A stretch of DNA of 64,000 nucleotides from Cenococcum geophilum (taxonomy: Eukaryota), in assembly GCA_050273025.1 (NCBI GenBank), contig CP158635.1, positions 18,786,001 through 18,850,000 of the forward strand, given 5' to 3'. The notes below the pieces were generated by a model that made no database searches, was not told where the DNA came from, and saw only the letters and a list, made by a program, of their open reading frames with translations. Numbering within the stretch: the stretch's first letter is position 1; every line of letters starts with the position of its first letter. Positions 13,881 to 64,000 of the stretch are shown here, in pieces. Both the position numbers and the translations under genes were made by a program.

Positions 13881-13884
13881 CTAG

Positions 13885-19820: not shown

Positions 19821-20126
19821 TAGACGATTGTGGCCCGTGCATGAACATCAAAATACTAACAAATAGCATCCTACCAGAATTATACTACTAAAATGTACTT
19901 TCAACGATATAGATCTTGTGTAACCTAATTAATATATTATTCTAAAGAATAAGCGTGTTAAAATCTCATTCCTAGAGCCTTAGGTACTAATAGATTTTAT
20001 ACTCGTATTATCCCTTCGCACGCTGGCGTCCAACCCTTGGTGCCAAGCATATGAGCACCGGTATCACGTTGCCAAGATCCAGCTCAAACGAGAGTGTCTG
20101 ATTGGCTATATCCTTATCGATACGGT

Positions 20127-21743: not shown

Positions 21744-21899
21744 CCTATAGTCTAGGTATAATTAAATAAGCCTAACTATCTAGCTCTAGTTTAGTTATAA
21801 TTAAGATAAAAGTTAATATATAAGATAATTAATGTTAATAGGCACTTCATGTTATTTTTAATTAACTATAAGGCGCTGTCTTAGTATTTGCAACCATAT

Positions 21900-22059
21900 T
21901 ATCGACCTGTCAGACATTAGTTTCAGCCTAGTTTCGGTCTAGTTTCACCATTCTCCAGGGACCCCCGTAGGGGGTACCACATTGCCTGTATATAAGCCTG
22001 TATCTACGTAGATTTAAATCCTTACACGAGTATTTCTGACCTGATATGTCCGGTCGACA
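21900..22059. repeat. Putative short solo LTR (160 bp)
   Basis: Termini T(A)TCGACC ... GGTCGACA (TG..CA after RIP), internal TATATAAG; flanks catat/cgtag only partly match as a TSD. Confidence 0.4.
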
Positions 22060-40430: not shown

Positions 40431-41814
40431 GTTCCAATTGGTTAAAAATTGGTTCGGGTTACATGATAAGGGGACGTGCTACTTTACGTGCTACCCTATT
40501 AAATTTGCAACCTTATAACCTCTTTCTACCCCTTACTGCTTGAATATCTTCTATATATTACTACCCTACCTATTATACTCTCTACCTACTACCTAAATGC
40601 CTTCCAATTATATATTTTGTAACGCCTATAAACAGGATCGCCCTTCCGCTAACTTTATACTAACCCGCTAAAGAGCTCCGTATAAGACCTATAAATCTTA
40701 TAGAGTTAATTCTTTTTCTCTTTTTTTACTTACTGCCTTTCTAACTCTATATATAGGAGAAAAGAAAGGGACGGTCCCGACGACGACCTTTAGTAGACCC
40801 TCCGCAGCCTATAAACCAAACTACAGCTACTACTGTAGCCGCTACTGCCTCCGCTACTACTTCCGCCGCTGCTTCTCCCTCTACTTCTCGCCTCCTTATA
40901 CCGCCCGTATCGATCTAGCCGCGACTGCCTATATTAATCTAGCCGCGACCTACTACGGTCCGCCCTATCGCGGAGCAGCCAGATTGTAGTCCTATTACTA
41001 CAGTCCGCTATATTACGGAGTAGCTAAATATTAGTCCTATAGATATTACCTACAACTTCTGCGCGGCCCTATATTAGGTTAATAAACGTGTTAGTATATT
41101 ACCGCCTAGCAATCCACGCTTTAAAGCCTGCTATAAATACGGCGGTATAAACCTCCCTCTATTTTAGCCTCCACCAAAATATCTACGCAATCTTTTAGAG
41201 TCCTGTAGTACTTCTACTAGGCAGTTTAGGGAGCGGCTCCGCGCATATAATATAGCATTGGCTTTTACGTCCGTAAACTATACTGTTACCAATTGTGGTG
41301 TAGCCTATGGCGGCCTAAATTGCTCCCAGATATATGGTGAGCTTTACTATCTATAGGGCCCGCTAGAGCCTCCTACTAATACTACTCTACGGTATACCTA
41401 GCTATACTTTTACAACCCTAGTTATACTATAGATGTTTGGCTACGGGCCCGTCCTAATACCTAGCTAGATGTAACTGTTCTATAGTGTCTTACTGCTATA
41501 CTATCTGAGGAACGGAACCCTTTTATCGCCTTTTATTAAACCGCAAGGGAACGGCTTTAGGCTTAGCCTATAACGGCCCCGTTACGGATTATTTTAAACC
41601 TATAAATGCGGCTTATCTTAGAGGCTAGTGCTAATCGGCGCCGTAAGAACCTCCTAACGAGTAATAAGGTGGCCGTTATTATACTAGACGAGTATAGTAA
41701 TGCCAGCTTCCGTGATATCGTGCTTGTAGAGCGTTATGCGCCTAATAAGCAGCCGCGGTACTGCCGTATTAACCCAACATATGCCGCATATATGCCGCTC
41801 CACTACGTACTACT
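40430..41814 (+). mobile_element. Helitron, 5' portion (N-terminal RepHel)
   Basis: C..C.A(LH), (CC)K.G, RQFRERLRAYN.ALAFTS, QLYFY(D)P, ...YMPLHYVLL broken by the LINE; left boundary approximate. Confidence 0.8.
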
Positions 41815-44800
41815 AAAAAACACCAATCTTTGCGAAAAATAAATTTTTGAAATAACTCTACAACTATAACCCCTAGCGTTTTAATTTAAGCTGCATTCTT
41901 CTTGTAAGCCCTCTGGCTATTATCTAATATCTAGAGATGGCCGAAAAGAAGGGTTGGTGGCCTGAAGTAGGACGCGTTAACCTAAACTATAACGCGCACG
42001 GTTAAAATATCATGGTTAAAATTGCTAAGATCCTCAAATTTAGCACTCCGCCGCACAAAAAAGCAGATAGGAAGGCCCTCCCGTATAGGGTATATAAGCC
42101 CTTTTTTAATTTGGTGTTAAAGTATATTAAAACAGCTCTTAAACAGCCTACTGGAAAGAAACTGGAAGAGACCCTTACGCGTCTTAAACGCTAAACAGAA
42201 GCTATTAAGAATACGGTTGAACATATTAAATACAACTAAGAGATAGCTACCCCCCCTGCCGCATAAAACAGAAGCCTATAGTTAGCCGTTTAAAGCTAGG
42301 CGAACGTCGCTGCAGCTGCACCACCGCCCCCGTCCGTATAGTTACGTCTCTCTATAAGCGTTACCCCAACTCTAGCCGCATCGGAGTATAGATATATAGT
42401 TATTAAATTTAGCGAAAAGGCTAATGCGGAGGTCCTTTAAAGCCTTAAAGAGCCGCATAAAGTTATCTAGGAGAAGCTAAATAACGTGCTATTTAAATTA
42501 GGTAACGCTCTAGTAAACAAGGCACGGATTACCGCGTTAAAGATCCTTAGATCCGGAGACGTTCTTATATTTGCTGAGACGCTAGCGTAGGTAGATGACC
42601 TGCGTAGACATGGAGACGAGTGGGAAAAGATACTGGGAAGGAGCTCTTGAGTAATAAAACCTATATACGGAGTAGTAGTATATGGCGTACCAATACGGTC
42701 CGTTATCGATATAGACAAGAAGGCTGTAATTAGAAAGTTTAAGCTAGAGAACTATAGGGCATTTGGCAACTATAGGATCGTTAAGTAGAGGTAGTTAAAG
42801 CCTCTAAAGGAGAAATAGAGAGATGCATCTTTGGTGCTAGAATTTGAGACCGTACTAGGCGCGAACGCCGTAATCTATACGGAGGTCCTCTACTGGGATA
42901 GCACCTATAAGAGAACTAAAAAATATAATCGCGCCTGCTAGGTAAGGCAATATTCTAAATGCTACTAATACGGATATATAGGAACCTAATGTCGCGAAAT
43001 AGAGACATGCGGATAATGTGCCGCTTAAGATTATAATATAAAAGACTACAAGGCCGAATAGGCTAGGTGCTGTTTTTGCTAAGGTAAGTATACCGCCTAG
43101 TCGCCAGCCTGCTCCATCTATAGGAAGGAGACGGTATATATGGAGGAAGTAAAAGCCAGACTCCGCGTAAACCTATACTGGCCTAAGAACCTAGTATATA
43201 TATTACTAGGGCCATTAAAGATAGGGAGTTAAAGTTTAAGCTAACAGAGCTTTCTACCCCTACTACTATAGACAACTAAAAGTACGGTAAATACTATGAA
43301 CAAAACAGACGGGATAGGAACGGAAACAACGGATAGAAGTAATAAAAGAAGGGCCGTATAAAGCCCAATAGGGAGCCTAAACGGGAAACCTAGCTAGGAT
43401 AAAGAGATGGACAATAATAACCTAGAACGGGATATATCACTAATATGGATAAAAAGAAGTGACCGTAATATTGCTAAAGTAAAACCTAGTATAAAGAGTA
43501 GGAAGAATAAACTAAAAGATAATGCTATAATAAGCCGCAGCAAGAGCAGAAAAAAGGAGAAAGAGAAGGAAAGGGAGATGATTAAGATCGTTATAGACGA
43601 ATAAGCGGAAATTGAAGACGAGGGCTCTAACCTTAGTAGTAGCTTATAGTACTCTATACGGAGTTTAGGGAAAGTACCTACACTACCACAGATAGATATA
43701 TCTGGCCGTTTGTAATGACGGAGGACCCGGATATCCGCACTATTAAGGTTCTATAATATAATATAGGAAAGAGCTATATAAGAATATAGGAGCTCCTATA
43801 AGATAAGTAGACTTAGTAGTATAACGTAATCGCCATCTAGGAGGTGTGGCGTAGTGAGAGACTAGAAAGGGACCTCCCTACAACCACAAATCCAATTAGC
43901 GACAGGTTCTACCTGTATTACCCGCCTCACTAGGGAATATAGGTGTATCTTTTTATTAACAGAAGTATTCCAATTAGATACCTCCGCATTATAGATTACA
44001 GTAGTAACCTTGTAGCAGTGTTGATTATAAGCTAAGGGGAAGAATAATAGCATATAATTATAGTATTTAACATCTATAACCTAAACCCCCTCCTACCGTA
44101 TAATCGGTTGGACGGCCTCCCGAGAGGCTGTATGCTCCTAAAGCTAAATAACGCCTTAAGAAGAATGAACGGACTAGACTACAGCACCGTAGTTATAGGA
44201 GACTTTAATCTCTACTACCTTAGATAGGGAGGACCCAAAGCTAGGTATAACTATAGGGTAGCGGCGGAATACCTTATTAAAGTAACAGAAAATAATGGGC
44301 TTAAACTAGGCTTTGAGCTAGGGCTTATTATAAGACCAGCTAAGGGAGTAGGTATTAACCCCTTAATAATTAACCTTAGCTTTATTATCTTAGATATAGC
44401 AGACTACTTAATCTAAATAGGAATTAATAAGGAGCTTGATAAAGGCTTTAACTACCTCCTAGTAAAAACAGTATTCGGATACCGGCTTAAACGAGAAGAG
44501 GAGCTAACTAGGCGACTCTTTAAGAAGATAAATAAAGAAATCTTCTATAATGTACTCTAAGATCTCCCGGAAGTGCCCCTAGTTTTATTATAAAACCAAA
44601 TTAATGTAATAATTATTAGAGTTATAGACACCCTTACTAAAGCCGTGGAACTCTCTACACTAGTAGCTAAGCTTAGCCCGCGATCTAAACTAGGATGGAC
44701 GGATAAATATATATAAGCAATTAAGGCGGAACAACGCGTATATAGGCACTTTAATAGACACCTAATTAAAGAAAACTATATTATACTACAAATAGCAAGG

Positions 44801-45145
44801 CGAAAGAAGGATAAAGCTATTAGGAAAGCAACTAAAATAGAGTATAGAAATAAAGTAAACGAGGTTAAAGATATAAAGGGACTCTGGTCTTTATATACTT
44901 GGGCCTAAAAACGGAACACTATAAGAACTATATTTACGCTAGATATTAGAGACGTAATAGGTACCCTATAACGTACTATAGAAGGAAAGATAACGGCCCT
45001 TAAGGCCTCCTTCTTTTTAATACCACCGCCTGCGGATCTAAAAGACCTATACGACTACCAATATCCGAACCCCCTGTGGGTCCCAGATATCAAAACTTGG
45101 GAGGTAAAAAAAGCTATTAAGATGACTAGCCCTAATAAAGCACTA
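41815..45145 (+). mobile_element. Tad1-like LINE, 5' half (ORF1 with Zn knuckles, endonuclease, start of RT)
   Basis: VVYGVP, CCHC knuckles 42945-43115, endonuclease VL(Q)YN ~43748, IAI(Q)E, VIGDFNL(HH)P.WGG ~44190; ends at ..SPNKA(P) at the TIR insertion; preceded by TSD ACTACGTACTACT (41802-41814). Confidence 0.88.
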
Positions 45146-45384
45146 CATCAGGAAATTTTTTTTTGGGCACGTTGTTGCAAGCGAAAATCGGGGTCTGCAA
45201 AACCTGCGTAAGTCGCAATTTTGGCAATTTGCGGCAATTTACAGCAATTTACTATAAATACGCAAGTAGCCTGTGCAAATTGCTGTAAATACGCAAGTAG
45301 CCTATGCAAGTTACTGTAAATTGCTAAAATTGCTAAAATCGCGACTTAAGCAGACCCTAATTTTTGGCTGTAATAAAAATACTA

Positions 45385-46080
45385 TAAAGCTCTGCATAAA
45401 GCTCTATTAAGGCTCTGCACGAAGCTCTGCATAAAGCTCTATATAAAGCTTTATATAAAGCTCTATACGAAGCTCTATACGAAGCTCTATATAAAGCTCT
45501 ATATAAAGCTCTATATAAAGCTCTATACGAAGCTTTATACGAAGCTCTATACGAAGCTCTATATAAAGCTCTATACGAAGCTCTATATAAAGCTCTATAC
45601 AAAGCTCTACACGAAGCTCTATACGAAGCTCTATACGAAGCTCTATATAAAGCTCTATATAAAGCTTTATATAAGGCTCTATATAAGGCTCTACACAAGG
45701 CTCTATATAAAGGTCTGCGTATAGAGGCTTTGTATAAGACTCTATATAAAGCTCTATATAAAGCTCTGCACGAAGCTCTATATAAAGCTCTATATAAAGC
45801 TTTATATAAAGCTCTATATAAAGCCCTATACGAAGCTCTATATAAAGCTTTGCGCGAGGCTTTATATAAGGCTTTATATAAAGCTCTACGTATAGAGGCT
45901 TTATGCGAGGCTCTGTACGAAGCTCTATATAAAGCTCTATACGAAGCTTTGCATAAGGCTCTATATAAGGCTTTATATAAAGCTCTATATAGGGCTTTAT
46001 ACGAAGCTCTATGTATAGAGGCTCTGCATAAGGCTTTGCGCGAAGCTTTACGTATAAAGGCTCTACACAAAGCTCTGTAT
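45385..46080. repeat. 12-bp tandem array (AAGCTCTATATA / AAGCTCTGCACG variants)
   Basis: Over 50 directly visible units; variants differ mostly by C/T and G/A transitions. Confidence 0.95.
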
Positions 46081-46494
46081 TAGGTCCCCGCTATATTCCT
46101 AATAACCTCTATATATGTCTCTGCTAAGATACCCCTTATATACACCTAGGTAGCCACCTTATTTTCTACCCTTCCTTATATCCTTCCTACCTAGGGAGAT
46201 ACCAGAATAATAGCTAGTAAATAACCGTCGCTAAAACCAGACGACTACCGTTTAAATGACTATCTAGCGAACGCTACGAACGATTTAATTAACTAATCGA
46301 TTGAATTAAACCAGAGCTTTAATATTGGCCCGTCGCCAAATCGAATTAAGGCCTCCTAGGTAGGTACCCTAGACGACTACCGTTTAAATATACAGCCAGC
46401 GAACGGCCGTAGAGAATGATTCGAATTAATATAATTAATCGATTAATCGAATTAGGCGGAGCCTTTAATTGGGCCGACCTTTCCCCCAAATTAC

Positions 46495-46755
46495 AAATAG
46501 GTAGGTATAGATAGTAGTATAGATAGGAGGTACAGACGGTAGGTATAGATAGGTAGGTATAGATAGGTAGTATAGATAGGTAGGTATAGACAGGTAGGTA
46601 TAGATAGTAGGTATAAATAGGTAGGCACAGATAGTAGGTATAAGTAGGTAGGTATAGGTAGGTACAGACAGATAGACAGATAGGTAGGTAGGTAGATAGG
46701 TAGATAGGTAGACAGATAGATAGATAGATAGGTAGGTAGGTAGGTAGGTAGGCAC
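46495..46755. repeat. Degenerate GTAG/ATAG/ACAG microsatellite
   Basis: ggtaggtatagataggtagg... tract; inverted counterpart at ~57770-58050. Confidence 0.9.
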
Positions 46756-47193
46756 TAGGCCTAGTTAGGAAATCGGTATATAGCTAGCAGATCGTTAGGA
46801 ATACCGCCAATTAATAATTTAGAGCCTTTGTAAAGAGTATCCCCCTTATCTTAATTACTTAATAAATAGCTCTATATTTTATATAGTTATATAGAAATAT
46901 AAAATATGCAAAATATAAAATATATAAAATATGTAAAATATATAAAATATATAAAATATATAAAATATACAAAACGTGTAAAATATATAGGCTCTACGCG
47001 TTTGCTGCGAGTTGCTATAAAATACATAGGCTCTATATAGTTTGCTGCAAGTTGCTGCAAAATACGCAGGCTCTGTGTAGTTTGCCGTAAAATGCGTAAA
47101 CCGCATAAGACTATATACAACTGCCGCGACCGTACAGTTTGCCGTAAATTGCCGCAAACTGCAATAATGAGCCCGAAAAAAAAATTCCTAATG

Positions 47194-49321
47194 GGACTAA
47201 AACTAGGCTATACTAGGTGGGATAGTAATACTGCTGGCTAGGGCTATATTATAAGATAAGGCTTATATCTAAGCTGCAAACCGCTAATTTATCTTACCCT
47301 AGCGGACACGTATATTTAACCGTAGGGATAGTATATAGAAGGTAGGCTAAAGGAATAACCACTGCAGGCAGGCACCTATAATGGCTGCATAGTTCCCCCA
47401 TAGGACGACAGGTAGTATTTAAGTAAAGTTACTACCTAAGATAGTAGGGAGTCCGCTAAAGGTAGAGTCGTTAAAACGGACGTCCGTAAGTATATAGTAC
47501 ACGGCTTTAAAGCAGTAGCGGTGCTATATTAGCACCTTATCCTAGATAAGCAGAGAGGTATAGTATAAAAGCTTAGCAAGATTTGACCTTTTAAAGACGT
47601 TATAAGTAGACTCTTTATATAGATTGATAGGTATCCAAAAACAGGAGTAGGTAGTACAGCTGCTAGGTAGTAGGAGGGCCGTAATGCCAAAAGAAGCTAC
47701 GCAAAGAACGATTTTACTGCGTAAGCGGTAGTAGTGGCAAAGGCAGCGATAGAGAAACGTTTTACTAGTACTTATAGGGCCCTAGAGAAAGAAGCGGGCC
47801 GTTTATAGATCCGCATCTATAGCGGCAATAATAGTATTAAAGCAGGCTGCCTAATCCGTATTTAGCTGCTAGCGTAACTTAGTAAACTGGCGTTCTTCCT
47901 CTATATAGTCGTATTGCTATAGCTCCGCTATAAAAAGCAGGTTACTTCCCTCTATAATAACGCCCTACTAGTGCTAAAACTGGGGTAGGCTATAGTCCGT
48001 AAGTGTTTTTTACTAATCCGCAAGTATCTAATAGATAAGGTATAGGCCGTAATTAAAATAGGCGTTATCGTCCTTAATAACTATAGGGGGAGTATTAGGT
48101 TGGCGGGCTAGAAAGTAAGGCAGATTATTATAAATAGACTGTTTAAAGCGGTCCCATAAAGCAACTAGCTCTATAATAGGGCCGTAAAGTAAAGTAGTTA
48201 TAAATAAGGAGCGTAGCTAGGCGCTAACGGTAAAAACAGCGGCCTCTATTAAGTAATTAATCCACTTATAGTTATTCCCTAGTAGCCCTAAGGCTACGTA
48301 GGCGGCCTAGAAGGTTAAATAAACTATACTAGTAACAGTACGGAGGTCCTTAAAGGAGGTAGGGCCGGAAACGGACGTTAGTAGCAGCCGTAAGTAGAAC
48401 CTCTTACCTATAATAGGGATGTAGTAATATATATAGCCTATCGCGGTGCCTTACTGGCGAGGACGCTACTCCCGCTGCTTTGCATAAAAGATATACCACT
48501 TAGGGAAGTCTTAATATAGGTAGTTACGGCTACTATTATGCTCCGCGTTATACTTAAAGAAGGCCGTTAACATAAAGTAGGAGAGCTTAAGGCGCTGCTA
48601 AATCTTCTCTACGGACTAGTCCGGCTAAAAGTATACGGGCTACTTGCCTAAAAGGTATACCGTAAGCTAGATTATAGGGGGGAACTCCTTATAAACGGGA
48701 AACTTAAATAGCCGCTAGATAGCCTTAGAGGGGCTAATATAACGGCCCTATAAATACTAGCTTACTTCGTCACCGTCTATAAGCCGTAAAGTAGTACGGT
48801 CGCTCCCCTTATATATATACTTATAGATATACTTAACAAACCGCACAGAGGCGTAGACTTTAACATTTATATAGGCATAATACTTTATAGTTAGATACGG
48901 GTAGTATAGAATAATCTAGCGGTTATCTATTTTAAATATAGCTCTCCCTAGTAAGCGGACAGACTACAACTATAGATTATTATAACGGCGGTATTCTAAA
49001 TAGCCGTCCTTATATATAACAATAGTAGGGTTAAAAGGCTTAGGGTACCGCTTTAAGTAGGTTAGCGGAAGGCCTAGCCCTAGCGCAACTATATAAGGAG
49101 CTCGCGGATTTTAGGAGCCGTAAGGGCCGTAAACTATTATTAACTTTATAATCTTAGTAAGACAGCTAGTAGAATCGTCCTCTGGCTATAGAAGCTCCGT
49201 AAATATAAAACGGTTAATAATAGCTAGGTTTAACAGCCTATCGTAATTATATAAATGTAGGAAGAGCAGTAGATATAGATAGGGCAGGCCCCGTTTTTGG
49301 TACTTAATGGTTTAGACGGAG
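47194..49321 (-). mobile_element. Helitron Rep (HUH) to PIF1 helicase segment, now inverted
   Basis: Minus strand, de-RIPped: TI(E)YQKRGLP(H)L(H)LLLF ~49260-49310; FFL(Q)GP(AGTGKT)FL, LCVAS(S)GI(A)ALLLP, (DE)V(PMQ)HR.CF, LG(GD)F(AQ)ILPV. Confidence 0.88.
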
Positions 49322-52300
49322 TGTTACGGCTTATACAAATGCCTCTAAACCAAAGCTTGTAGAATGCTGTATTACGAAGATACTAAGCTAAGGAGCAGAA
49401 GAAGGTCGAGGAAAGGATACATCTATATACACAAGCCAAGTCTCCAAGCGAGCCCCTAACTAGGCTGCATGTAGACGTCGCATAGGGCGGTGCCCCAGCG
49501 CCGTTATATCACCCCCCTCTTCCAAAAAAGCCTGCCCTTAGGCTTTAGCCCCTCATAGAGAAGAAAGAGAAAAGAAAAAAAATCTTACATCTAGCGCTTA
49601 ATCGCGATGCTAGTTAATATAGGACTTATAGCAGTCCTGCAGCTCCTACTACTATAAGGTATATTACTATACCTAGTTGACATAGGGCAGGCAGCCGTCC
49701 TATAGCTCCTACTGCAGCGAGGGGTCTATTACTAGGAGCCCTCCGTTAGTCATCATTCCTCCTCCCTCCTCCTAAAACTCCGGTACCTCCTAGCTATACT
49801 CTCCCCCCTTTTATTATAGCGCGCCCTAAGCTATAAAAAAAGCCCCCCTAGTCCCCCTCTTAGAAAAGTAGGCGTAAAGGTTTAATAAGGGTGGGAGGGT
49901 TAGGGAGTTACTCGCATACATATCAGCATAAGTTCTTGTCCATTCGGTAGCAGTACAGTACCAGTAACGGGTCGTTCAGGTAGCAGTATAATGCTAGCAA
50001 TAGGGTCGTATTCTAGGGAGCAAAGCTCTACCTAGTTATATTCGGGTCGCAGGCGTATTAGCGCAACGGGTTATCAGGGTATAGTTCCGCAAGCATATTA
50101 GCACAGTGTCTTATTAGTAGTGGTTTGCAGGCGTATTAGCGCGGTAACTTATCGGGATTATAGCAGTACGGTGCTAGCGATAGGCCGTATTTTAGGGAGC
50201 AAAGCTCTACCTTATATACAGGTGTTACCGCAGGCGGAGTAGCAAAAGTTGGTTAGCTGCAGGCAGAGTAACAAGGGTTGGCTAGCTACTAATAAAGCAA
50301 TAAGGGTTAGTCGGCTGCAGGTAAAGCAGTAAGGGTCTATTATAATAGCAGGCATATTAGCGCTATTATTTAGTTAGGTTTACATTTAAATTACGTTTAG
50401 GTATTATTCAAATCATATTTAGGTTATAGGCGGATCATAGGCATAACGGCACGATTGGTCTATCGATTAGACTATAGGCGTAGCAGCACAGTTGTTATTA
50501 GGTTATAATAGCAGGCGTATTAGCGCTATTATTATCTAGTCAGTTAGCTACAGGTAGAGCAGCAAGGTATTGTCTAGTTGGGTAGTAGTACGGTACTAGC
50601 GTTAGGTAGTAATAGTAGGTCGAGCATAGAGCTCGTCTATTAATAGGTCGTAGTTCTACAGGCGTATTGGCGCGAAGCTTATTAATTTGGGTAGTAGTAT
50701 GGTGCTAGCGGTAGGGTCGTATTCCAAGGGGCAAAGCTCTCCCTTATATACAGTTGTTACTATAGGCGGGGCAGTAAAAGTCGGTTATAGACTACAGGCA
50801 GAGCAGCAATAGTCTATCATAGTGCTGCAAGCAAGGCAGTAGAAGATAATTCGCCGTAGGCGGAGTAGCGGAGGTCAAATTAGTATTAGCTATAGGCAGA
50901 GCAGCTAGAGTTAATCATAGTGCTACAAGTAAGGCAGTAAGGTATTAGTTAGCTACAGGCGGAGCAGTAGGTATTAATAGTAATACTATAAGCAGAGCAG
51001 TAGAAGGTTAATTAGGTTACTATAGGTAGAGCAGTAGGTGGTCTATTATAATAGCAGTACGGTACAAGCGTTAAGTGGTAATAGTTAGTTAAATATTTGG
51101 AGCTCGGTTTATTAGCTGGTCGATAGATTATAGGCGTAGTAGTATAATCGTTAGTTAATAGATTGCAGGCGTAACGGCGCGATCATTATCATAGTAGTAC
51201 GCGATAGCAGTTATATCAGCATAATTATCTCGTTTATAGATCACAGGCGTATTAGCGCAATCGTTTAGTCGTTAGACTATAGGCATAAAGGCATAGTCGT
51301 TATTAGGTTAGCATAGGGCATATAGCCGTCCTACTATTGCGAGAGGTATATATCGCTAGGAGCCCTCTATAGTCATCATTCCTCTTAGAACTCTAGTACC
51401 TCCTTAGCTCTACTACCCCCTCCTTTAATATAGCGCGCCCTAAGCCATAAAAAAAAGAAATATAGCTCGCATGCGTATTAGTATAAGCTCTTATCTATTC
51501 AGTAGCAGTATAGTACTAGCGTCCAATAGTAGATAGCAGGCGTATCGGCGCTATTATTAGTTAATTAATCGCAGGTATAACGGCACAATTAGTTAATCGG
51601 TTTATATTTAAATTACGTTTAAATTACATTTAGATCACAGGCGTAACGGCGCGATTATTATTCAGTTTATCTAAATTGATTTCGTTATTGAAGCTTATAT
51701 AGCTTAGTATTAACCTTATTGTTAGAGTATACAAATACTTAAGGTAAAGCTTATATAACTTAGTATTAACCATAGTCGTTCCTTAGTATACGTAGCTTAG
51801 TGTTAGTTAAAAAGGATCACCGTAGGTGGAGAAGAAGACGATTAAATCGGTTAGGGAGGCAGTTGATCGTTGACGAACTTATACGGTCGTTATTAAAGTC
51901 GTAGTTCGTGTCGCAGGCATATCAGCACGACGGTCGGTTGGGTTCGCATTTAAATCGCGTTTAGGTCGCATTCGAATCGCATTCAGATCGCAGGCGTAAC
52001 GGCACAATCCATCTGTCGGTTTCTTAAGGTCTACTATTAATCGGTAGGTAGTTTAAGACGTTATTAGTTATTTAAAGGTACGCTATAGAGTTAACAGGCG
52101 TATTTAAATACTTAGATTTAATTAAGGATATTACTATAAGTAGCAGATATCTAGGATCGATTAAGAACTTATAGGAATGCTGTTATAACTTAGTATATTA
52201 AATCGTTATCAGAGGTATTAAAAGAGGTATTAAGAGGGTATATATTAATATTTCGATTCTTATTAGAGGGTTAAAGGTATTAAAGAAAGAGTGCGCTTTA

Positions 52301-53775
52301 ATATTTGAGTATAGTTATATAAGGGTAAGCTGTTATATAGCGTTTAATTTAATAAGATGCTATTAAAGAGCAGATTCGCATATTATTATTTAAGGAGGAC
52401 TGCTGTTAAGTAGTAGGTAGTTTAAGGGTAGTTAATAAATAGTATTAAGAGCGTATATACTAAGGCGTACGTATTAATATTTTAATTCTTATTAATAATT
52501 AGTAAGACATGCTTTTATAATAGTAGGCTGTCTTATTTATAAAAGGTTATATAAAAGGCTATTAAGAAAAACGCGTTAATAGTTTATAAGAGGTTATAGA
52601 GATAAATAGGCTCATCTATAGAGCTATTAGAGAGTACCATAAATTAGAATAATTCTCCTAATCTATTCTCCTAATTAAGAGTACTATAAATTACTTAAAT
52701 TCTCCCCTAGGTTTCTAGTACCCCTATACATAGAATATAAATATATTCGGCCGTAAGATTAAGGGACTACCTAGGTTAATAGTAAGGTTCGGGTCAATTA
52801 TATACGGTAGTTATTAATAAGAACTTAATAGGTATCTATAAGGGCGTTTATAGGTAAGTTAGAGAGTTATATTACAGGTATATTAGCGCGATAGGTTATC
52901 AGGTTTAGGGTTTTAAGGTAGTAGTATAGTACTAGCAAGTCCTTCTTAATTAATTTCATCTCTTCTTATACAGCTTAGTATTAATTAGGGTGGTTATTAC
53001 AGCGTAGTTTATACCAGAGGATATAGGTAGGATTTATTCTAGAGGACTTCGCGGATAATATACACCTACTACCTAATAGCACGGCGCGGGTTATAAGTTA
53101 GCTTATCTTAGCTATTAGCCCGAACCTAATATATACTAAAGAACTTTGTGGACAATATACACCTACCGCCTAATAGTACGGCTTAGGTTATATCTCAGCT
53201 TATCTTAGCCAATACTACAGGATTAGTACTAGGCTTAGTGACAGGATTACTATATTATTCTTCGCAGTATTAGGCTAAGTCTCAACTAAGGTCGTCTCTA
53301 TAGCTTATACAACTCCGTATTAGTTAAAAAGGTTAGGGGGATAAGATATTCTTACCTTCCCAGGCAGTTGTCCTTATCTATAGAAGACCTTCTAGCTGCT
53401 TAAATACCGGCTCCTAGTATTAATGATAGCAACTTAACGCGTCGACGACGCGCAGCTAGGGGTATTTAACGCGTGTCCCCTTAGAACACGTGGAATGGGG
53501 GTAGGAGATTATCCAGGCCTTCCCAGGTAAGGTAAAGAGGGAGCTCCAAACAAATAAAGTCCCCCCTAGGTGGGTAAGCTTAGTATAATGTTACGGCTCG
53601 TATAAATGCCTCTAAACCGAAGCTTATAGAATGCTGTATTATAAAGATATTAAGCTAAGGAGCAGAAGAAGGTTAAGGAAAGGATACGTCTATATACACG
53701 AGCCAAGTCTCTAAGCGAGCCCCTAACTAGGCTGCATATAGACGTTGCATAGGGCGGTGCCCCAGCGCCGTTACA
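49322..53775 (-). mobile_element. LTR retroelement, apparently non-autonomous (187-bp LTRs, 5-bp TSD CGGAG)
   Basis: LTRs 49322-49508 and 53589-53775 (TGTTACGG...CCGTTACA); CGGAG at 49317-49321 and 53776-53780; PPT GGAAGAGGGGGGTGA on the minus strand next to 49508; no gag/pol motifs recognised. Confidence 0.88.
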
Positions 53776-54372
53776 CGGAGCCGCGGTACTAGCCGAAGAT
53801 TTACTTCTATTTTAGGTTATAAAAGAGGTAGATAAGCTTTATATAGAAGACGCGTATAACTAAATCGGGCCTATCTATAGTAGTCTAGCTAGGTAGTAGC
53901 TCGCGGGTAATCTTATTCCACTTAGGGTTAGCACTAAATATAAGAAATATACTAGGACGGCTATATTTATAAATAATAGCTATTAAATCCTAATAGCACT
54001 AGCCGATAAAGCGATCTCCGCTAAAAAAACTAGATAGAAGGACTACGCGGCGGCCTAATAATTTAGGGTCCAGATTATAGCGTGTAAGAGTATTTATAAC
54101 GCTATTATATAGGTCTACACGGAGGGTTATTTAGTTAGAGCAGATCTAGGTAAGCTTATTCTAATTATATAGCGCCTATATATCTATAACATACTGCTAA
54201 AATAGCTAGTAGTAGGTAAAAGGGACCAACCTAGAGTTGTTATAGACGTGTAGGTAGAACCAAAAGTATACCTACTAGGTTAAATGGTCTCGCTAGTAGG
54301 CTTAATTAGAGTTGCGTAGCTAGAGACCCTAGTGCCAGCCAGTATCACTACGAGGGAAGAGTAGTACGTAGT
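53776..54372 (-). mobile_element. Helitron middle segment (Helitron_like_N region), now inverted
   Basis: Minus strand YVLLFPR(G)DTGWH(W), LF(Q)QYV.D.W, LR(A)DLYN, ILPSSF.(G)GDRF, ANPKW..I.RELL, RP(D)LV.RVF; continues exactly from 41814 and into 49316. Confidence 0.88.
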
Positions 54373-57300
54373 TATTTTTATTTTATTTAAATTATATACC
54401 GTTTTAGCTGCCCTAAGGGCGCTATACCGGGTCTTCTATTTTATAGAGGTAGATCCTAGGTAATTACCCGTCTTACCTATAGTAGTAATTCTGTAAGGCC
54501 CTTATCTGCCTATCTACTACATACTATAGGTATATAGTGCCTAGGAGAGAAGTAAACGCCTATAATTGCCAAGTCTAAATTAAAAATCGAACGCTAGAGT
54601 AATACAATTATAAGGATATATGTAAGTAGGGTAAGTTCCTATATAAAGGAGATAATCGAAATTAAATAATTAAAAAGTAGTGAGTATACAAATTACCTCC
54701 GTTCTGTACCGTATATTAGAGCTAGGCCTATTTTACGGGCCTAGAGTTCTTACTTTAATACTATCCGTCTTCCGCTAACGTCGCGTATAACCACTAAGAG
54801 AGACTTAATTAGTCACTTTAAGTCTATTCCTAGCCTCCAGAAACTACCCTAGGAGGCCTATTTATACTATATATTATACTACTTTCTTTACTAACTATAC
54901 TAGGTTTAAGATTAATTTATAGCTCTAAGGTTAGCTATTATACGGCTAAACTACTTTCCTTAGATCCTTAAAGTTAGGGCATTCAATTAGGACGTGTCGC
55001 CCTATCTATTTGTCCCTGTATATACACCTTAAGTCAGGCGCGCGTTTAATCCTATAGAGGTAGCTTTTAAGGGCCACCTTGCCTGTACGGATCTATATAA
55101 GGGTAGCAGAGAAAGCCTTTAGTAAACCCCCGTACACCCTTAGTCTCTGCTTTAAGATTTTTAGTGCTAGTCTATACAATTCTCTCCCGGTCTTTCCTGT
55201 CTCCTACTTATTTACCCAATAGTTTCCTAGTCTTGCTTTAGTCGTTCTCTTTACTACAGATAATAGGCTTTAGAGTGACGGGAAGGTAGGGGCTTTTAGT
55301 CTTATCTCTCCTCCTTCTCTCTACCCCGTTACCATCTTCGCTAAGATATCCGCTTGTTTATTCCCCTTAATATCTACATATAACGGGACCTAGTATATTG
55401 CTACCCGTATGCTTAGCATTTATATAGCTCGTAGTCTTTTACGTACCCCGTGGACCAGGTACTGGCCTAAGTAGTTTTATAGTTTAGCTACTGCTTATAT
55501 TACTGCTTAATTGTCCGTAAATATTGTTAATCTTCTAATTATTAGCGGGTGCTTAAGTGCTAGGTTAAGAGCTAGCTATAGCCCTCTTAGCTCTCCCGCG
55601 TATATTATGCTGACTTAGTTCATTCCTATATAGTTAGCTACTTTAGCTCCTAATTCGGGAATATACGCTAAAGCTCCTACCTCTCTGTTAATTTCACTAC
55701 CGTCTATATATGCTAGTACGTATTTTAGGTTGTTCTTAGCTTCCTATATAATTTGGTTATATTTAAGCTTGCCTACTTCTATCCCTTTAGTAATATAGAT
55801 CTTTGGTAGCTTAGTCTATGGGTAGATGATTTTTAGACGGATTACTTTTATAGGAGGTATCTCTTTTCTAAGGCGGAGTAATACCGTATGCTCTAATTTC
55901 TGGAGAGGGCTGTACCATTTAAACTTTAATAGGGCGGATCTCCGTAGTTGTTAAATCTTATAGTATAATAGCGATCCCTTAATTCGGTTTAGAAAGGACT
56001 TAACCGTTTAGTAAAGCGATATTTTAATTAGTGGAATATGCATCTCTACTTCTAGTTTAGCCTTAGTAGTAGTTCTAAAAGCTCCTATTATAAGGCAAAG
56101 TACTTTATACTAAATTCGTAATAGAACTCAGTAAATATTCTTTATTCTATTTATAAAACTACGCCCTTTATCTAGTATATACCAGTAAGAGGCTATATAG
56201 AGTATACGTGGCATAACTATAGCTGTGTAGAGTTGGCGCATGTATTTAGTTATAATACCCTATATAAATCCTGCAATGCCTAAAAGGCATACAAGTTAGC
56301 TTATAGATCTTTCCGCCATATAGTCTAGGTGCGCTTTCCCTATTAGCTTATCGTCTAATATAACGCCAAGGTATCTAGCTTTCGTTATTAGTTATACTAT
56401 TTAAGTTCTTCCGTCCTTTAGTGTGAGCGCTAACGGACATTTACGTTTCTCTTCCGAGGCCTTCTTCCTAGGCCGTACAAAGTGGATAAGTTTATACTTT
56501 TGTGGTGCGAATACTAAGGCGTATCTATATGCCCACTTCTCTGCTCTCTTATGCAGCATTAATAGCGTCTTTATTATCTCTTCCGTGTTTCTCCCGTTTA
56601 CTATTATACTTATATTATTAATATACCCTATAACTAGGCCATACCTTAGTCCGTCTTCGTCTATAGCAATATCTAAGAGATTGGCGTTATAGAAAAGGTA
56701 TAATATTAGCGATATTGGTAAGCCTTAGGGAATTCCTATTAGTATAGGGAATCTTTCTAATATTCCTTCTGGTAGTTTAATACATGTAGACCTTCCTATA
56801 AGGAAGCTTTGGATCTATTTAACCATTAATATAGGGATTCTTCGTTTCCGTAGGCAGTAAATAAGCCTTTAGTATAATACGTTATCAAATGCTCCGCTTA
56901 CGTCGAGCATAAGTAGGCTTACTATGTCCTTATCGCCCGTTTGCCATACAGCGTATATCTTCTCTAGAAGGAGATATATCGCGTATTTATAACCTACTGC
57001 TACTCTTCCACCCGTATAGGTGCGTAGTAGGAGGCCATAGGCGTCCGCTATAAAGAGTATCCGTTTTATAAGCACTTTGTCCATAACCTTACCTACTATA
57101 TTTAGTAAGGCTATTGGCCTATATATCTTGGGGTCCTTAAAGTCTCCTTTCTTTAGTTTTTTCAGTGCTATAGTAATTAATTTTCAAAAGTATATAGGGC
57201 AGTATTCTACTATAAGGTATTAATTAAAAAGTCGGGTTAATAGTTCTTTTAGTTCCTTTATAACCTTATAGAGTACGCGGCTTAGGAGCTAGTCCTTCCC
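54373..57300 (-). mobile_element. Tad1-like LINE, 3' half (RT, RNase H, C-terminal Cys/His domain, A-rich tail), now inverted
   Basis: Minus strand begins GKD(Q)L(P); RPIALLN, LMLDVSGAFDNV, GIP(Q)G(S)PIS, RYLGV.LDDKL, RNase H Y(T)DGS..., (W)VP.(H)...GN(E).AD; A-rich tail aaataaaataaaaata then TSD. Confidence 0.9.
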
Positions 57301-58638
57301 TATATTAGGAAAATTTTTTTCAGGCTCGTTGTTGCAGTTTGCGGCAATTTACGGCAAACTGTACGGTCGCGGCAGTCGTATATGGTCTTGTGCGGTTTAC
57401 GCATTTTGCGGTAAACTGCATAGAGCCTATATATTTTGCAGTAACTTACAGCAAACTACACAGAGCCTGCGTATTTTATAGCAACTCGCAGTAAACGCGT
57501 AGAGCCTATATATTTTATACGTTTTGTATATTTTATATATTTTATATATTTTATATATTTTATATATTTTATATATTTTATATATTTTATATATTTTATA
57601 TATTTTATATTTTGTATATTTTATATTTCTATATAACTATATAAAATGTAAAGCTATTTATTAAGCAATTAAGATAAGGGGGATACTCTTTATAAAGGCT
57701 CTAAATTATTAATTGGCGGTATTCCTAACAATCTGCTGGCTATATACTGATTTCCTAACTAGGCCTAGTGCCTGCCTGCCTGCCTACCTACCTATCTATC
57801 TGTCTGTCTATCTGCCTATCTACCTATTTACTTACCTACCTATTTATCTATTTATCTGTCTATCTATCTATCTATTTATACCTACCTATGCCTACTTGCC
57901 TATGCCTACTATCTATACCTACCTATCTGTGCCTACTATTTGTGCCTACCTATCTATACCTACCTATCTATGCTACCTGTCTATGCCTACCTATCTATAC
58001 CTACCGTCTATGCCTCCTATTTATGCTACCGTTTATACCTACCTATCTGTAATTTAGGGGAAAGGTTAGCCCGATTGAAGGCTCCGCCTAATTTAATTGA
58101 TTGATTAATTGTATTAATTCGAATCGTTCTCTATGGCCGTTCGCTAGCTATATATTCGAACAGTGGTCGTTTAGGGTGCCTACCTAAAAGGCCTTAATTT
58201 GATTCGGCGACGGGCCGATATTAAAGCTCTGGTTTAATTTAATCGATTAGTTAATTGAATTGTTTGTAGCGTTTGCTAAATAGTTATTTAAACGGTGGTC
58301 GTCTGGTTCTAGCGACGGTTATCTACTAGCTATTGTTTTGGTGTTTCCCTAGGTAGGGAGGATATAAGGAAGGGTAGAAAATAAGGTGGCTACCTAGGTA
58401 TATATAAGGGGTATCTTGGCAGAGGTATATGTAGAGGCTATTAGGAATATAGCGGGGACCTAATGCAGAGCTTTGTGTAGAGCCTCCGTATATAGAGCTT
58501 CGCGCAAAGCCTTATGCAGAGCCTTTATACGTAGAGCTTCGTGTAGAGCCCTATGCAGAGCTTTATATAGAGCCTTATATAGAGCCTCGTATAAAGCTTT
58601 ATATAGAGCTTCGTATAAAGCTTCGTATAGAGCCTTGT

Positions 58639-61600
58639 CTATTATTTATACGCTTGTGGAGAAGAGGATTAATTAATCTAATTGGTGGGTACGGGCTTAA
58701 AGGCATTAATTAAGAATGGGTATATTCGCAAGGCCATTTGTAGGGGATTGCCCTGCCTTAACTAAACGTGATGCCTATAGACCTGTGCGCAAGCATATCG
58801 CTGCAGTATCTATTTATAAAGCCTAAAATATACAACTAAAGAAAAAGGTGTAGGTGGGAGGGAAAGCAAGCAAGTAAGGCTTAATTTTGTAAATGTTGAT
58901 GATGTTGGTGTTACTAAGATATAGGGGTGCTGCTGCAGTGCTCGCTTAGCCACATAGATATGTCTATCTATTATTTATACGCTTGCGGAGAAGAGGATTA
59001 ATTAATCTAATTGGTGGGTATAGGCTTAAAGGCATTAATTAAGAATGGGTATATTCGCAAGGCTATTTATAGGGGATTGCCCTGCCTTAACTAAACGTGA
59101 TACCTATGGACCTAGAAGCGCAGCGCCTGTACCATATAAGGTAGAGTAGGGGGAAGAAAAAATAAAAAATAAAAAAGGGGGGGAAAGGAGAGATTTAAGT
59201 TAATATATTAGAGTGCCAAAATAGGCACTCCTGCACGCCGTTATACCTAAATACCTTCGCCCATTATATCTAGGGCGAGTAATAATAAGAACGGTATTGG
59301 CGTTCTACGTTAGAAGTTTATACTTAGCTAAAATAGGTCTTTTAGGGATAATAAACAGTAAAGCTGGAACGCTTATAAGGACCACCAGCCTAGTTACTAT
59401 ATTTAGCCGTCTGTAAAACCGTTGTCTTAAGCGTATTAAGCAGCACCTTTCTAAAATAAGTGTCCGTTATAGAGCTTAGAGTAAAGGCTAAGAGCGGTAA
59501 CTTTATACTTTAGCTTATTCCTAACCGCGTAGCTTATAAAGGCCGATCTCTTAAAGTAAAAGAGAGGGGCGTTTCTGGGTTGGGGGTTATTTTTAAATAG
59601 GTGTTTTATAGCTCAAACTGCGTATTTAGGTTGCCCTAAAGTGGTAATCATAATTAAGACTCCTTAGTAATTAACGTCCGTTTTACTACGCTTTAGACGT
59701 AATATTATATAGTCCTCTGCTAGCGTTATATTATTTCTAGTATATTTTATAGTAGAGAAGGCGTAGCTATCTTTCTAAGCCTTAGTATAGGTGATCTCGC
59801 CTAAACAAAGAAATCCTATAAAGGCCGTGGTAATAGCAGTGTTAAAGTTAAGATCCTTAATAGATTAGGCATTTGGGGTAACTAATTAGGTAAGGATATC
59901 TTTAGTAATTGGCAATCTTTTAGCTATAGTAAAGGGATTTATAGATATTGCACCGTCTAGGATCCTTTTAATAATAGGATTATTAAAGACGGAGGTGTTA
60001 TAATTAGCGTTAATATAGTAGGATTAAATTACGGAGACGTAGGCTCTAACTATAGCAGGCTTAATACAGCTTATTCCTAGACTAGCATTACCAAAGATCT
60101 GTTAGGTAATCCATTTTCCTAGGTAGTAGAGGGGCGCTAGGTACTTCACCGCTCCGTAAAGGTTACAGTAGCCCTCCTAACTTTTAATTACGGGACGGTA
60201 TAAATCTCTTGTTCTATTAGAGAGGCTATGCTATAATAGTTGGCCAAAGCATTCTAAGGGGGCTTTTACCTTAATCTAGAAATTAGGTAGGGGGTCTTTA
60301 AGAGGGACCAGGTCTCCTATTTTAGCGTTAGATTAAATGTAATAAAAAAGCGTATAGTAACGGTAAATTAGAAGTATCCTAATATAGGTATAGTAATAAC
60401 ACCCTATCGCGATTAAAACAAGATAGAGTATTAGCTAGCCCGTTTTCTATAGAGGAAACCCACTCCGTATAGAGCGTAATATCATAGGCTGCGGCCAGTT
60501 AAAGGATCTTATGGAGCGGGTAATTACCCGGTCCTTTTACTACCGTATTTTAAAATTTTAAGAGTGCTACTATATTATCTATATAGATATAGACTAAGCT
60601 ATACTCCTACTACGTTACCCAGAGCTAAAACGAGGTCATAATTACTCAGACCTCCCGCTCATTAATTAGGGCAAGGCGGTGTTCTGTATTAGGGTAGCAG
60701 CTTAAAGAATTATCTTAGGGTAGAGATACTGAATAGGGCGGCCATGTTGTCCCTTAAAAATCCTTAAGGAAGAAGAAGGCCCCATAATTAAGAATCCCGA
60801 ATATGTCTAAAAAGAGATAGAATTATTTTTAATCCATATTATTAAAAAAAAGGATACTATTTAAAAGGGTAAGAGCATCCCTTTACCATAACAAGTCTTG
60901 GCGAAGTTTAGCTGTTAGCTATTAGTAAGGATAACTACCTACCTTTATAAAAGTGGAGATAAACTCCTAGATAGAGCGGTTATATAAATGCCTAAGCCTA
61001 ATTACCTGGGCGCTCTAAGCAAGTTTACTAGCTAGTTTTTAACTCTGAACTAGCGTTAGGAATCTACCACTTAACGCTTTATTAATCTCCTTAATTGTAG
61101 TAGCCTGTTTTAAAGGAGAAAGACGCAGCTTAGACTTTAGAGTATCTATAATATAACCTAGGACTTTAGCCGTAGTGCCTTTAATATTCTTTAATTTATT
61201 TCATGGGATGCCTAATTTATTACTTAATTAGTTATATACACTAAGCAATTAAGGGAAAATAGAAGCGTTAGAGAGTATAAAGATAAAGTTATCTAAATAG
61301 TGCTCTAAGGCGGCGTTTGGGATATATTAGATAAGTATCTAGTGGAATCCCTCCGTAAAAAGATTAAATAAAAAGGGTGTAGTTCGAAGGCCGAATAAGA
61401 GGCAACGTTTAAAATATACCACACCCTTCTAGGAGAACCCTATAAGGCGTTAAGCTTTAATAGAAAGTGGGATATTCTAAAAGGCGTCCTTAATATCCCT
61501 CTTAACAATTATATAACTACGGCCTATATATATAACATATTAGAGAACCTAATTAACTATTAAATATTATAGTGTAGCGAATGCTATAGGGATTAAGTTA

Positions 61601-63377
61601 TTAACAGATCGGCTAGATAGTAAGAATAAGTTATAAATACGGCGCTATCCCCTATCCGCTTTAGGTACTAAACCTAGCGGCAAGGATATAACAAGAGACG
61701 TTACTATTATAATTCTGCCTATATCTAGATCGGCGCTAATCTTCTCTAAGATTAGGACCGTATTTGTGGCTATTAAGGCTTAGTTCTTCTAGGAGAGGAG
61801 CTTAATTTTTAGGTCTGCCCTAATCTGGTATCTAAACTTTAAGATACTAATAATATTACGTTAGAGGTTACTAGGGTATAGGGATAGATAACGCCCCCAC
61901 GCTTAAATAATTAAGGGGGAGGGAGAGTTTTGTAGAGGAGAGGAGGGTAGAAAGACTAAAAATAATAGTATAGTATTTAGCCTACCCGTACTATAAGGGT
62001 AGAGCATAGTTTCGGCGGAGTATAGGTATAGCTTAATAAAATTCTCTTCCTCCTCTTCCTTTTCCTTATTAACACTTTCCTCTAGTAATTACTACTTATA
62101 ATTCCTCGTAGCATATAGGCCACCGCACTTACTATAGGTATACGGGAACTTGCAATCCTTGCCTAGGTTATACTTCCCTCTATTAAAGCTATAATAGGTC
62201 CTTAAGATATTAGTACTTACTTACGCGCGTTTTAAGATAGATGCAAATTTATAAGTACTAGGATTGTAATAGATATCTAGGAAGTTACTAGAGATCTTCT
62301 AGTTAGCTAGCTTTAACTAGTTCTTTTAAATAACTATAGAGTGGTGCTTTAAGGCCATAGTTATTAAGGGAGTAATTTAGTAGGTAGTAGATAGCTAGAT
62401 AACTTAATTATAAAAGGCAAGTATTTAGGGAATAAGATCTACCGAAAGATTCTTATATATAACAATTAAAATCATTATATAGTTAAGGAAGCCCTCTACC
62501 TACACTTTAACGGACGGGTAGTCCTTTATTATCCCTTCTTTTAGTCTTATAAAAAGGACGCTATTAACAATAAGGATATTATTCTAAGGCTTAGACTAAA
62601 GCTGGTGTATCCAGAGGCGAGAGAGGTTATTAGGTAAGAAAGTACCCCGAAATACCTTAAGTATCTCTTTATTTAGGACGCTAGGGAAAAGGGTATTTAG
62701 GATATTAGCTATAAATAGGAGCAACTTACCCGGTTTATTAATTAGGGTTAAGGATAACACTACCGTAGCTAATCTCGCTGTTACTATAGCAAGGCTTAAT
62801 ATATAGAGTTTAGTCGCCCGATCTTCCTATTCTTTTTAAACGCGTAGTATTTTGGTACGGTTCTCCTATTCCTAAAGGAGTCTTATTTTTTAGTTGGTTG
62901 CCTAGTCCTTAACCTTCTTTACCTAAGCTCTTCTAATCCTTAGGTCCTCCTTATATAGTTACTGGAGCCGTTCTTTAGCTTTTTTAGCGGCTAAAGTCTC
63001 GCGTTAAGCCGTGGAGAGAGGCGCCATTATAGAGGATAGAGACTATAACGCCGGCGTATCGCCTAAAAGTGTAGGGGAAGGTGAGGGAGACTAGTAGGTA
63101 ACCTCTAAGGAGTTTAGCTCGTCAAGTGTGTCGTTATTAGTTAAGTTTTTAAGGTTTTTATAGATAATTTACGAAGGTTTAGACGAGCGTATAGGTTATT
63201 AAGTTATCAACAGTAACAATTAATTATTAGAAATTAAGTAAATAAGGCATTAGCTCTTAAATAAGACTAATATAGAAAGCAAGCAAGTAAGGCTCAATTT
63301 TGTAAATGTTGATGATGTTAGTGTTGCTAAGATACAGGGGTGCTGCTGCAGTGCTCGCTTAGCTACATAGACATGTC
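58639..63377 (-). mobile_element. Ngaro-type tyrosine-recombinase (DIRS-order) retrotransposon, structurally complete, RIP-inactivated
   Basis: Split direct repeats A1 (63273-63377), B1 (58968-59113), A2 (58862-58964), B2 (58639-58783); gag Zn finger ~62100-62200; RT (KRDI.DAF, FGLRT.PF.FN, HYL(DD)F); RNase H; YR (GFL.LGEIT, G(HSF)RKGAA, L(G.W)....F.LY). Confidence 0.9.
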
Positions 63378-63407
63378 CATATAGAGCCTTTATACATAGA
63401 GCTTTAT

Positions 63408-63714
63408 CCCTTAACCCGTCAGCGTCCTATATTATTAATAAGACATGGTCCGTACATAGAACAACAAAGCAGAGCGAGGGCGGCAAAGACTCTTTACGGC
63501 TGCAACATTTACAGGATTCCGTTCTGCATAAAAACGATATACTAGCAGCCTTATATTAACTAACTTAATATTGGGAATTAAACCTATATAGGGCTCCTGT
63601 AAAAGGGGGGTCGGGTATTAGGGACTTTAAATATCTCAGCACGACCAAATATCTAAGCTACATGATTGGCCAGTTCTTATCGATAATGTAGGACGAAATT
63701 TGACGGGTTAAGGG
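63408..63714. mobile_element. MITE (307 bp) with CCC...GGG termini and 2-bp TSD
   Basis: TIRs CCCTTAACCCGTCA...CGTCCTA.ATTAT..ATAAGA; comparison with the empty array site in copy 1 shows 2 extra bases (AT). Confidence 0.85.
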
Positions 63715-64000
63715 ATATAGAGCCTTATATAAAGCCTCGCGCAAAGCTTTATATAGAGCTTTGTATAGGGCTTTGTATAGAGCTTCGTATAAAGCTTTAT
63801 GCAGAGCTTTATATAGAGCTTTATGCAGAGCTTTGTATAGAGTTTTATATAGAGCCTCGTATAGAGCCTCTATACGCAGACCTTCGTGTAGAGCCTTGTG
63901 TAGAGCCTTATATAGAGCCTTATATAAAGCTTTATATAGAGCTTTATATAGAGCTTTATATAAAGCTTTATATAGAGCTTTGTATAGAGCTTCGTATAGA

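Follow-up and report, generated by a model that had tools for sequence, protein, structure and literature searches.

Two broken transposon reading frames point to a 10-kb inversion between opposed copies of a terminal inverted repeat element

Introduction

Inversions associated with transposable elements (TEs) are an event type that is already well known, from Galileo in Drosophila, from Ac/Ds in maize and from TE-rich fungal compartments. The natural inversions 2j, 2q7 and 2z3 of Drosophila buzzatii were attributed to ectopic recombination between inverted copies of Galileo in the part of PMC2775673 on which we draw, and the Ac/Ds inversions of maize and rice are described, in the available sections of PMC8225341, as made by the transposase itself. 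Here we analysed a 64,000-nucleotide stretch of Cenococcum geophilum (contig CP158635.1, positions 18,786,001 to 18,850,000; hereafter the window), in which a segment of 10,109 bp carries parts of a long interspersed nuclear element (LINE) and of a Helitron whose N-terminal coding parts lie outside it on the opposite strand, and is bordered on both sides by a terminal inverted repeat (TIR) element.

The same portion of PMC2775673 states that ectopic recombination between inverted copies predicts reciprocally chimeric copies and that the insertion of a hybrid element predicts identical ones, the two routes giving the same structure, with the target-site duplications (TSDs) exchanged in both. 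A sequence-only reading of the window had proposed that the segment was flipped between the two TIR copies, either by ectopic recombination or by alternative transposition, and that both present copies may be chimeras; the two mechanisms predict the same structure.

Results

Split reading frames of the LINE and the Helitron

A protein search with the minus-strand part of the LINE (54373-57300) returned 230 relatives at E<=1e-10, many of them about 1,300 amino acids (aa) long and carrying endonuclease (PF03372/PF14529), reverse transcriptase (RT; PF00078) and RNase H (PF00075) domains; in the window itself, an RVT_1 domain was found by Pfam on the minus strand at 56362-57144 (E 5.5e-19). Seven full-length homologs of the second open reading frame (ORF2), namely the top matches and one named protein from 120 listed, were then aligned to the window by tblastn. 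The first ~476-566 residues of all seven aligned to the plus strand (43715/43742-45142), and the remainder, from the next-but-one residue (aa 478), aligned to the minus strand from 57300 downwards in six of them; the second alignment of P0003 began 37 codons early, inside the TIR copy, and this was judged to be a spurious extension. The single residue skipped between the halves is the codon at 45143-45145 (CTA). The plus frame reads ..SPNKA-L to 45145 and the minus frame picks up as GKD*LL at 57300, so that the window reads KA-L-GKD* where all seven homologs have KAPG.D at the join, a difference that fits the CpA-to-TpA changes made by repeat-induced point mutation (RIP). The TA at 45144-45145 recurs at 57301-57302, and the earlier claim of an RT frame split at 45145/57300, with KAPG.D rebuilt across a 2-bp duplication, was thus borne out by all seven homologs.

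The target site of the LINE was split in the same way. Exactly two copies of the 13-mer ACTACGTACTACT are present in the window, one on the plus strand (41802-41814) and one on the minus strand (54360-54372), with an expected count of 0 in 100 dinucleotide-preserving shuffles. The 5′ end of the LINE lies directly after the plus-strand copy; the A-rich tail, next to which the sequence-only reading had placed the second copy, lies directly before it on the minus strand. With its ORF2 domains, 13-bp TSD and A-rich tail, the element is an endonuclease-type (apurinic/apyrimidinic endonuclease, APE) LINE with RNase H, putatively of the kind of the fungal Tad1-like elements. A twin-priming 5′ inversion of the LINE was ruled out, as the flipped piece takes in 7 kb of Helitron and long terminal repeat (LTR) element.

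For the Helitron, a search among longer proteins with the minus-strand sequence 49320-47194 gave 84 relatives, the top eight of which were taken for tblastn. All eight behaved alike: residues up to ~254 aligned to the plus strand as far as 41815, the next ~200 to the minus strand at 54370/54373-53774, and the next ~700 to the minus strand at 49320/49311-47200..47272. The overlap of 4-5 residues between the first two pieces is the 13-bp TSD of the LINE, and the last ~236 residues of the eight homologs had no tblastn match anywhere in the window. The Helitron ORF had been described as running on the plus strand up to 41814 and then on the minus strand from 54372 to 47194; the plus-strand half of this description stood in all eight homologs, and the minus-strand half has to be amended for a previously unmentioned LTR-type insert of 4.45 kb that interrupts it. 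A Rep domain (Helitron_like_N) followed by a PIF1-type helicase in one ORF marks the element as a RepHel-encoding Helitron. Helitrons have 5′-TC and CTRR-3′ termini with a 3′ hairpin and insert at AT; the 3′ end of the present one falls outside the window.

The interval was reverse-complemented in silico and copy A of the TIR element was removed with one TA. After this flip, the LINE measured 6,259 bp and formed one high-scoring segment pair (HSP) in one frame with aa 1-1314 of the homolog P0001, a single HSP being obtained with seven of seven homologs. When the LINE and the LTR element, each together with one of its TSDs, were also removed exactly, the Helitron ORF formed one HSP with aa 8-1151 of P0121, a homolog of 1,387 aa, and again a single HSP was obtained with each of the eight homologs. 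The contiguous LINE of ~6.3 kb and the contiguous Helitron ORF that the sequence-only reading had expected from such a flip were thus both recovered, which supports its claim that the interval was flipped between inverted TIR copies. There were 54 stops in the 1,305 codons of the restored LINE frame and 67 in the 1,151 codons of the Helitron frame, and both restored ORFs are therefore dead. In self-blastn of the window, each LINE and Helitron piece was found only once, so nothing was duplicated or lost at the breakpoints.

Both broken ORFs are made whole only by inverting 47194-57302. Since simple insertions cannot place the halves of two ORFs on opposite strands, an inversion is required, and the continuity of both frames after the flip suggests that an un-inverted ancestral arrangement once existed. 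We are highly confident in the reality of the inversion and in its origin through these two TIR copies.

The TIR element at the breakpoints

The presence of inverted copies of one 2-kb TIR element at the two breakpoints, also claimed earlier, was confirmed. Copy A measures 2,048 bp, and copy B matches it in inverted orientation (B 57304-58635 against A 45908-47192, 86% over 1,332 columns). The terminal sequences of copy A are CATCAGGAAATTTTTTTTTGGGC.. and, at the opposite end on the complementary strand, CATTAGGAATTTTTTTTTCGGGC..; copy B starts at 57303 with TATTAGGAAAATTTTTTTCAGGC.. and carries the right-end subterminal sequence, and the right ends of both copies face the flipped segment. Exactly three termini of this family occur in the window, against 0.05 expected, and none of them has lost a base. 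All visible junctions fall precisely on such a terminus, and both sites are therefore transposon insertion sites; the flip itself would have taken place within or through the copies. Homologous TE copies in opposite orientation thus stand at each breakpoint, which is the arrangement called for by non-allelic homologous recombination. The comparison of A and B comprised 148 transitions, 9 transversions, 50 gap columns and 1,154 identical columns; the excess of transitions indicates that the two copies were nearly identical before RIP.

No ORF, no Pfam match at E<=0.01 and thus no DDE/D transposase was found in copy A (45146-47193), which is largely made of internal tandem arrays of 12-bp, 27-bp and 9-bp units and in this respect recalls internally repetitive, foldback-like transposons. 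On these features we call it a non-autonomous TIR element. The 12-bp array has about 52 units (TATAAAGCTCTA) and lies at 45383-46012, 58464-58641 and 63715-64000; the unit is nearly its own reverse complement, so that the array matches itself on both strands.

Target sites and an independent copy of the element

The flanks of copy A differ, with TA on the left and GG on the right (at 47194). The TA beside the left end of A pairs with the TA beside the right end of B and not with A's own right flank; the pair at the LINE site is thus split between the A left and B right flanks, as it would be with exchanged TSDs, although it comprises only 2 bp and the partner flank of the Helitron site lies past 64000.

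A RIP-tolerant 30-mer scan of metagenome contigs gave two loci, L001 and L002. L001 was rejected as spurious, having a GC content of 0.26 and no blastn match. In L002, a full copy of the TIR element spans 1310-3392 and has 81% identity to A over the whole length, and a partial second copy lies at 5528-6221, in direct orientation about 2 kb from the full one; the flanks in L002 are RIP-like (TpA/ApT 1.8-2.0), and the less mutated termini there confirm the element terminus as CATCAGGAAATTTTTTTTCGGGCTCGTTGTTGCA. This copy is independent, and L002 does not hold the locus of the window. A metagenome scan gave 0 matches to a 24-mer across the junction of the right end of A with the Helitron, and tblastn of 204 fetched proteins gave 0 matches to L001 and L002.

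The full copy in L002 is flanked by a 6-bp direct repeat, CTACTA. Judged against the TA duplication of Tc1/mariner elements, the family thus shows TA at the LINE site, GG at the right flank of A and CTACTA around the metagenome copy, and by inspection neither the 8-bp TSD of hAT-type nor the 3-bp TSD of PIF-type elements fitted the flanks. As the 6-bp repeat conflicts with the 2-bp duplication at the LINE site, we assign the element to no superfamily.

The repeat block and its other features

The inversion lies in an AT-rich block with strong RIP signatures that spans from ~38 kb to the end of the window. RIP is indicated by TpA/ApT above about 0.89, by (CpA+TpG)/(ApC+GpT) below about 1.03 and by C-to-T or G-to-A differences between copies. 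Over 38001-64000 the two indices were 1.5-2.0 and 0.39-0.70, against about 0.8 and about 1.2 in most of the first 36 kb; together with the transition excess between copies A and B and the stops in the restored ORFs, these values establish RIP in the block. Long open frames are nearly lacking from ~38 kb onward; frames were read through the block with X at stops, and Pfam was run on these read-through frames with a cut-off of E<=0.01. The inverted interval is wholly dead TE sequence, and no working gene is touched by it. The coordinates of all features are collected in Table 1.

Table 1. Features in and around the inverted interval, in order of position in the window.
Feature	Position	Strand	Evidence
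Helitron RepHel ORF, N-terminal part (homolog aa ~1-254), up to the LINE insertion	40976..41814	+	tblastn 8/8, 40976/41225..41815
LINE target-site duplication copy 1 (ACTACGTACTACT)	41802..41814	+	exact 13-mer; Helitron homolog aa 251-254 align at both copies
LINE 5′ part: 5′ region and ORF2 aa 1-477 (43715-45145, endonuclease half)	41815..45145	+	tblastn 7/7 homologs; motif alignment
TIR element copy A, 2,048 bp, about 34-bp TIRs starting CATCAGGAAATTTT	45146..47193	+	terminus and array analysis
Inverted interval (very probable), 10,109 bp	47194..57302		LINE and Helitron tblastn; in-silico flip
Helitron RepHel, aa ~449-1151, including PIF1 helicase 47287-47868, cut at 47194 by the TIR element	47194..49321	-	Pfam E 1.4e-31; tblastn
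Nested LTR-type insert, 187-bp LTRs 49322-49508 and 53589-53775 (TG..CA/TA)	49322..53775		self-comparison; exact removal restores ORF
Helitron RepHel, aa ~251-450 (Helitron_like_N 53777-54223), including LINE TSD copy 2 at 54360-54372	53776..54372	-	Pfam E 2.8e-22; tblastn
LINE 3′ part: ORF2 aa 478-1314 (57300-54817), 3′ region, A-rich tail ending 54373; TA 57301-57302	54373..57302	-	Pfam; tblastn
TIR element copy B, right-end part	57303..58641	-	matches A 45908-47192 at 86%
Composite insert of about 5.07 kb inside the 12-bp array of copy B	58642..63714		repeat comparison
TIR element copy B, 12-bp array resuming, best match A 45594-45879 at 90.6%	63715..64000	-	ends at window end

The LTR-type insert that interrupts the minus-strand part of the Helitron (49322-53775) has LTRs that are 92% alike and a 5-bp TSD, CGGAG, at 49317-49321 and 53776-53780. 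No RT or other Pfam domain was detected in it at the above cut-off, which leaves two readings, a non-autonomous LTR element and an element that has decayed past recognition; degenerate internal repeats were seen around 49981-51039. Copy B is broken at 58641/58642 by the composite insert, in which two repeat pairs (58638-58784 with 58967-59113 at 95%; 58862-58970 with 63275-63383 at 93%) look like tandem or split LTRs; no Pfam domain was found in it (58642-63714) at that cut-off either. The 11-bp sequence TATAGAGCCTT flanks this insert on both sides, which may only reflect the periodicity of the array.

A Copia-type integrase SH3-like fragment (PF25597, E 1.5e-8) was detected on the plus strand at 39923-40120, just 5′ of the Helitron, which therefore lies in or beside an older LTR retrotransposon. 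Two 2-kb bins within the otherwise gene-like first 36 kb, 12001-14000 and 20001-22000, were of RIP type, with TpA/ApT of 1.61 and 1.50 and composite RIP indices of 0.66 and 0.73, and are probably isolated RIP-mutated repeats. In 24 sequencing runs, the share of sampled words was 0.59-0.62 in the four runs of one sample and 0.12-0.47 in the other samples, figures that have no bearing on orientation, strain or habitat.

Discussion

The order of events that we tentatively favour would begin with a Helitron being hit by an endonuclease-type LINE, which would have created the 13-bp TSD. Two copies of the 2-kb non-autonomous TIR element would later have come to stand in opposite orientation, one in the LINE ORF2 just before KAPG.D and the other in the Helitron helicase, and homologous (ectopic) recombination between the still nearly identical copies would have flipped the intervening 10,109 bp. 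RIP would then have mutated everything; with the copies now 86% alike (14% diverged), the arrangement would thereby have been frozen, and the flip itself would predate most of RIP. We give ectopic recombination between the inverted copies a little short of an even chance of having made the flip, and it is slightly favoured over a one-step aberrant transposition.

Several points weigh against this order of events. Chimerism is the only feature that separates recombination from hybrid-element insertion in the available part of PMC2775673, and its markers are overwritten by RIP. The period during which two linked copies remain identical may be short in a RIP-competent fungus, which would favour a one-step origin. 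The left end of copy B lies outside the window, as do the last ~236 aa of the Helitron ORF, which leaves only half of the second insertion site visible. Nor do the TSDs follow one rule: the LINE site has 2 bp, position 47194 lacks a TA and the metagenome copy has a 6-bp repeat. Finally, confidence in the assembly comes from the divergence of the arms and from the unique junctions.

The strongest competitor is a one-step aberrant transposition of a single resident copy, by hybrid-element or sister-chromatid insertion, in which the left end of one chromatid and the right end of its sister were inserted together nearby to yield an inverted second copy and an inversion at once. We regard it as a serious possibility, though short of probable. 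It predicts the observed structure exactly, according to the part of PMC2775673 drawn on above; all three visible junctions lie exactly at transposase-type termini, and the main argument is that one rare event may suffice where otherwise an insertion and a recombination would have to fall within a short pre-RIP period. The near-identity of the copies before RIP (148 transitions, 9 transversions), which this route requires, is equally expected, however, for two fresh insertions from one master copy. Furthermore, the element is non-autonomous and no transposase source was seen in the window by Pfam, and no such fungal inversion appeared as a title topic among the literature matches listed, which counts for little. 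The fuller version, in which a single aberrant transposition of a non-autonomous fungal TIR element gave rise to inversion and second copy alike and RIP fossilised the product almost at once, we consider unlikely. If true, it would count as evidence from nature for a direct part of fungal cut-and-paste elements in reshaping chromosomes, beyond that of passive substrates of recombination, and the odd TSDs (2 bp here, 6 bp in L002) could mean non-canonical strand transfer or an undescribed family. A reversed-ends event of the maize type, as set out in the available sections of PMC8225341, needs a third site and directly oriented elements, and does not fit.

Breakage followed by end-joining, in which breaks, whether transposase cuts at the element ends or other double-strand breaks, were sealed with the segment the wrong way round and with neither homologous recombination nor insertion, would accommodate the fact that only 2 bp are common at the LINE site and that there is no TA at 47194, unlike the 6-bp flanking repeat of the metagenome copy. 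Such joining makes no second full copy of the element, however, and the three termini are complete to the base and free of footprints, deletions and filler; we hold it to be highly improbable. A shade less probable again is an assembly artefact, with the wrong arms joined across the inverted repeats and the true orientation of the segment opposite. Inverted repeats around a segment are a classic cause of such mis-orientation, but here the identity between the arms is only 86% over 1.3 kb, and with 5 kb of other sequence inserted in copy B the two are easily told apart; all junctions lie in unique sequence, and the 14% divergence would make confusion of the arms by the assembler unlikely. The last alternative, that two truncated LINEs and two Helitron fragments came to lie in opposite orientation by chance, is effectively refuted, since although many fragments do occur in TE nests, these pieces are complementary to the residue with neither overlap nor gap, have in common an exact 13-mer TSD of which 0 copies are expected by chance, and fuse into single in-frame alignments.

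On the favoured reading of ectopic recombination or on its one-step rival alike, the locus offers a clean, base-resolved natural inversion by a transposon pair in a RIP-active fungal-type genome, with the ancestral state readable from two broken ORFs alone. It is a worked case for dating nested TE events, from the Helitron through the LINE, the TIR copies and the inversion to RIP, and it is relevant to the question of whether linked repeats have time to rearrange chromosomes before they are disabled by RIP. No gene is changed and no new mechanism is shown, and the wider weight of the case is small.

The closest likeness is to the Galileo inversions, as far as these are covered in the portion of PMC2775673 used here. 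There, too, each breakpoint has a copy of one TIR transposon, the two copies being opposed in orientation; further TEs have inserted into these copies, and that portion reports no deletions or duplications at the breakpoints. The TSDs of the Galileo copies are exchanged, a pattern that the 2-bp TA pairing seen here would match. The present case differs from them in its host, a RIP-active fungal-type genome; in that the inverted DNA is dead TE sequence, so that the ancestral state is read from broken ORFs and not from a standard chromosome; and in that chimerism is overwritten by RIP, one of two TSD pairs is visible, and the size is 10 kb and not megabases. With the inversions made by alternative (reversed-ends or sister-chromatid) transposition of Ac/Ds in maize and rice, it has in common that transposon termini lie exactly at the breakpoints (PMC8225341, PMC1592236, PMC3239180, each in the part available). 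Reversed-ends events, as described in the sections of PMC8225341 cited, start from directly oriented neighbours and involve a third, new site, where one breakpoint falls and a fresh TSD is made, whereas here two sites account for every junction and the copies are inverted. The TE-associated inversions and rearrangements reported from RIP-affected, TE-rich compartments of plant-associated fungi (PMC12778737, PMC4971763, PMC4210507, in the excerpts drawn on) resemble the present one in setting, an AT-rich, RIP-mutated repeat block beside gene-rich DNA; both breakpoints are resolved here to the base and the mediating pair of elements is identified.

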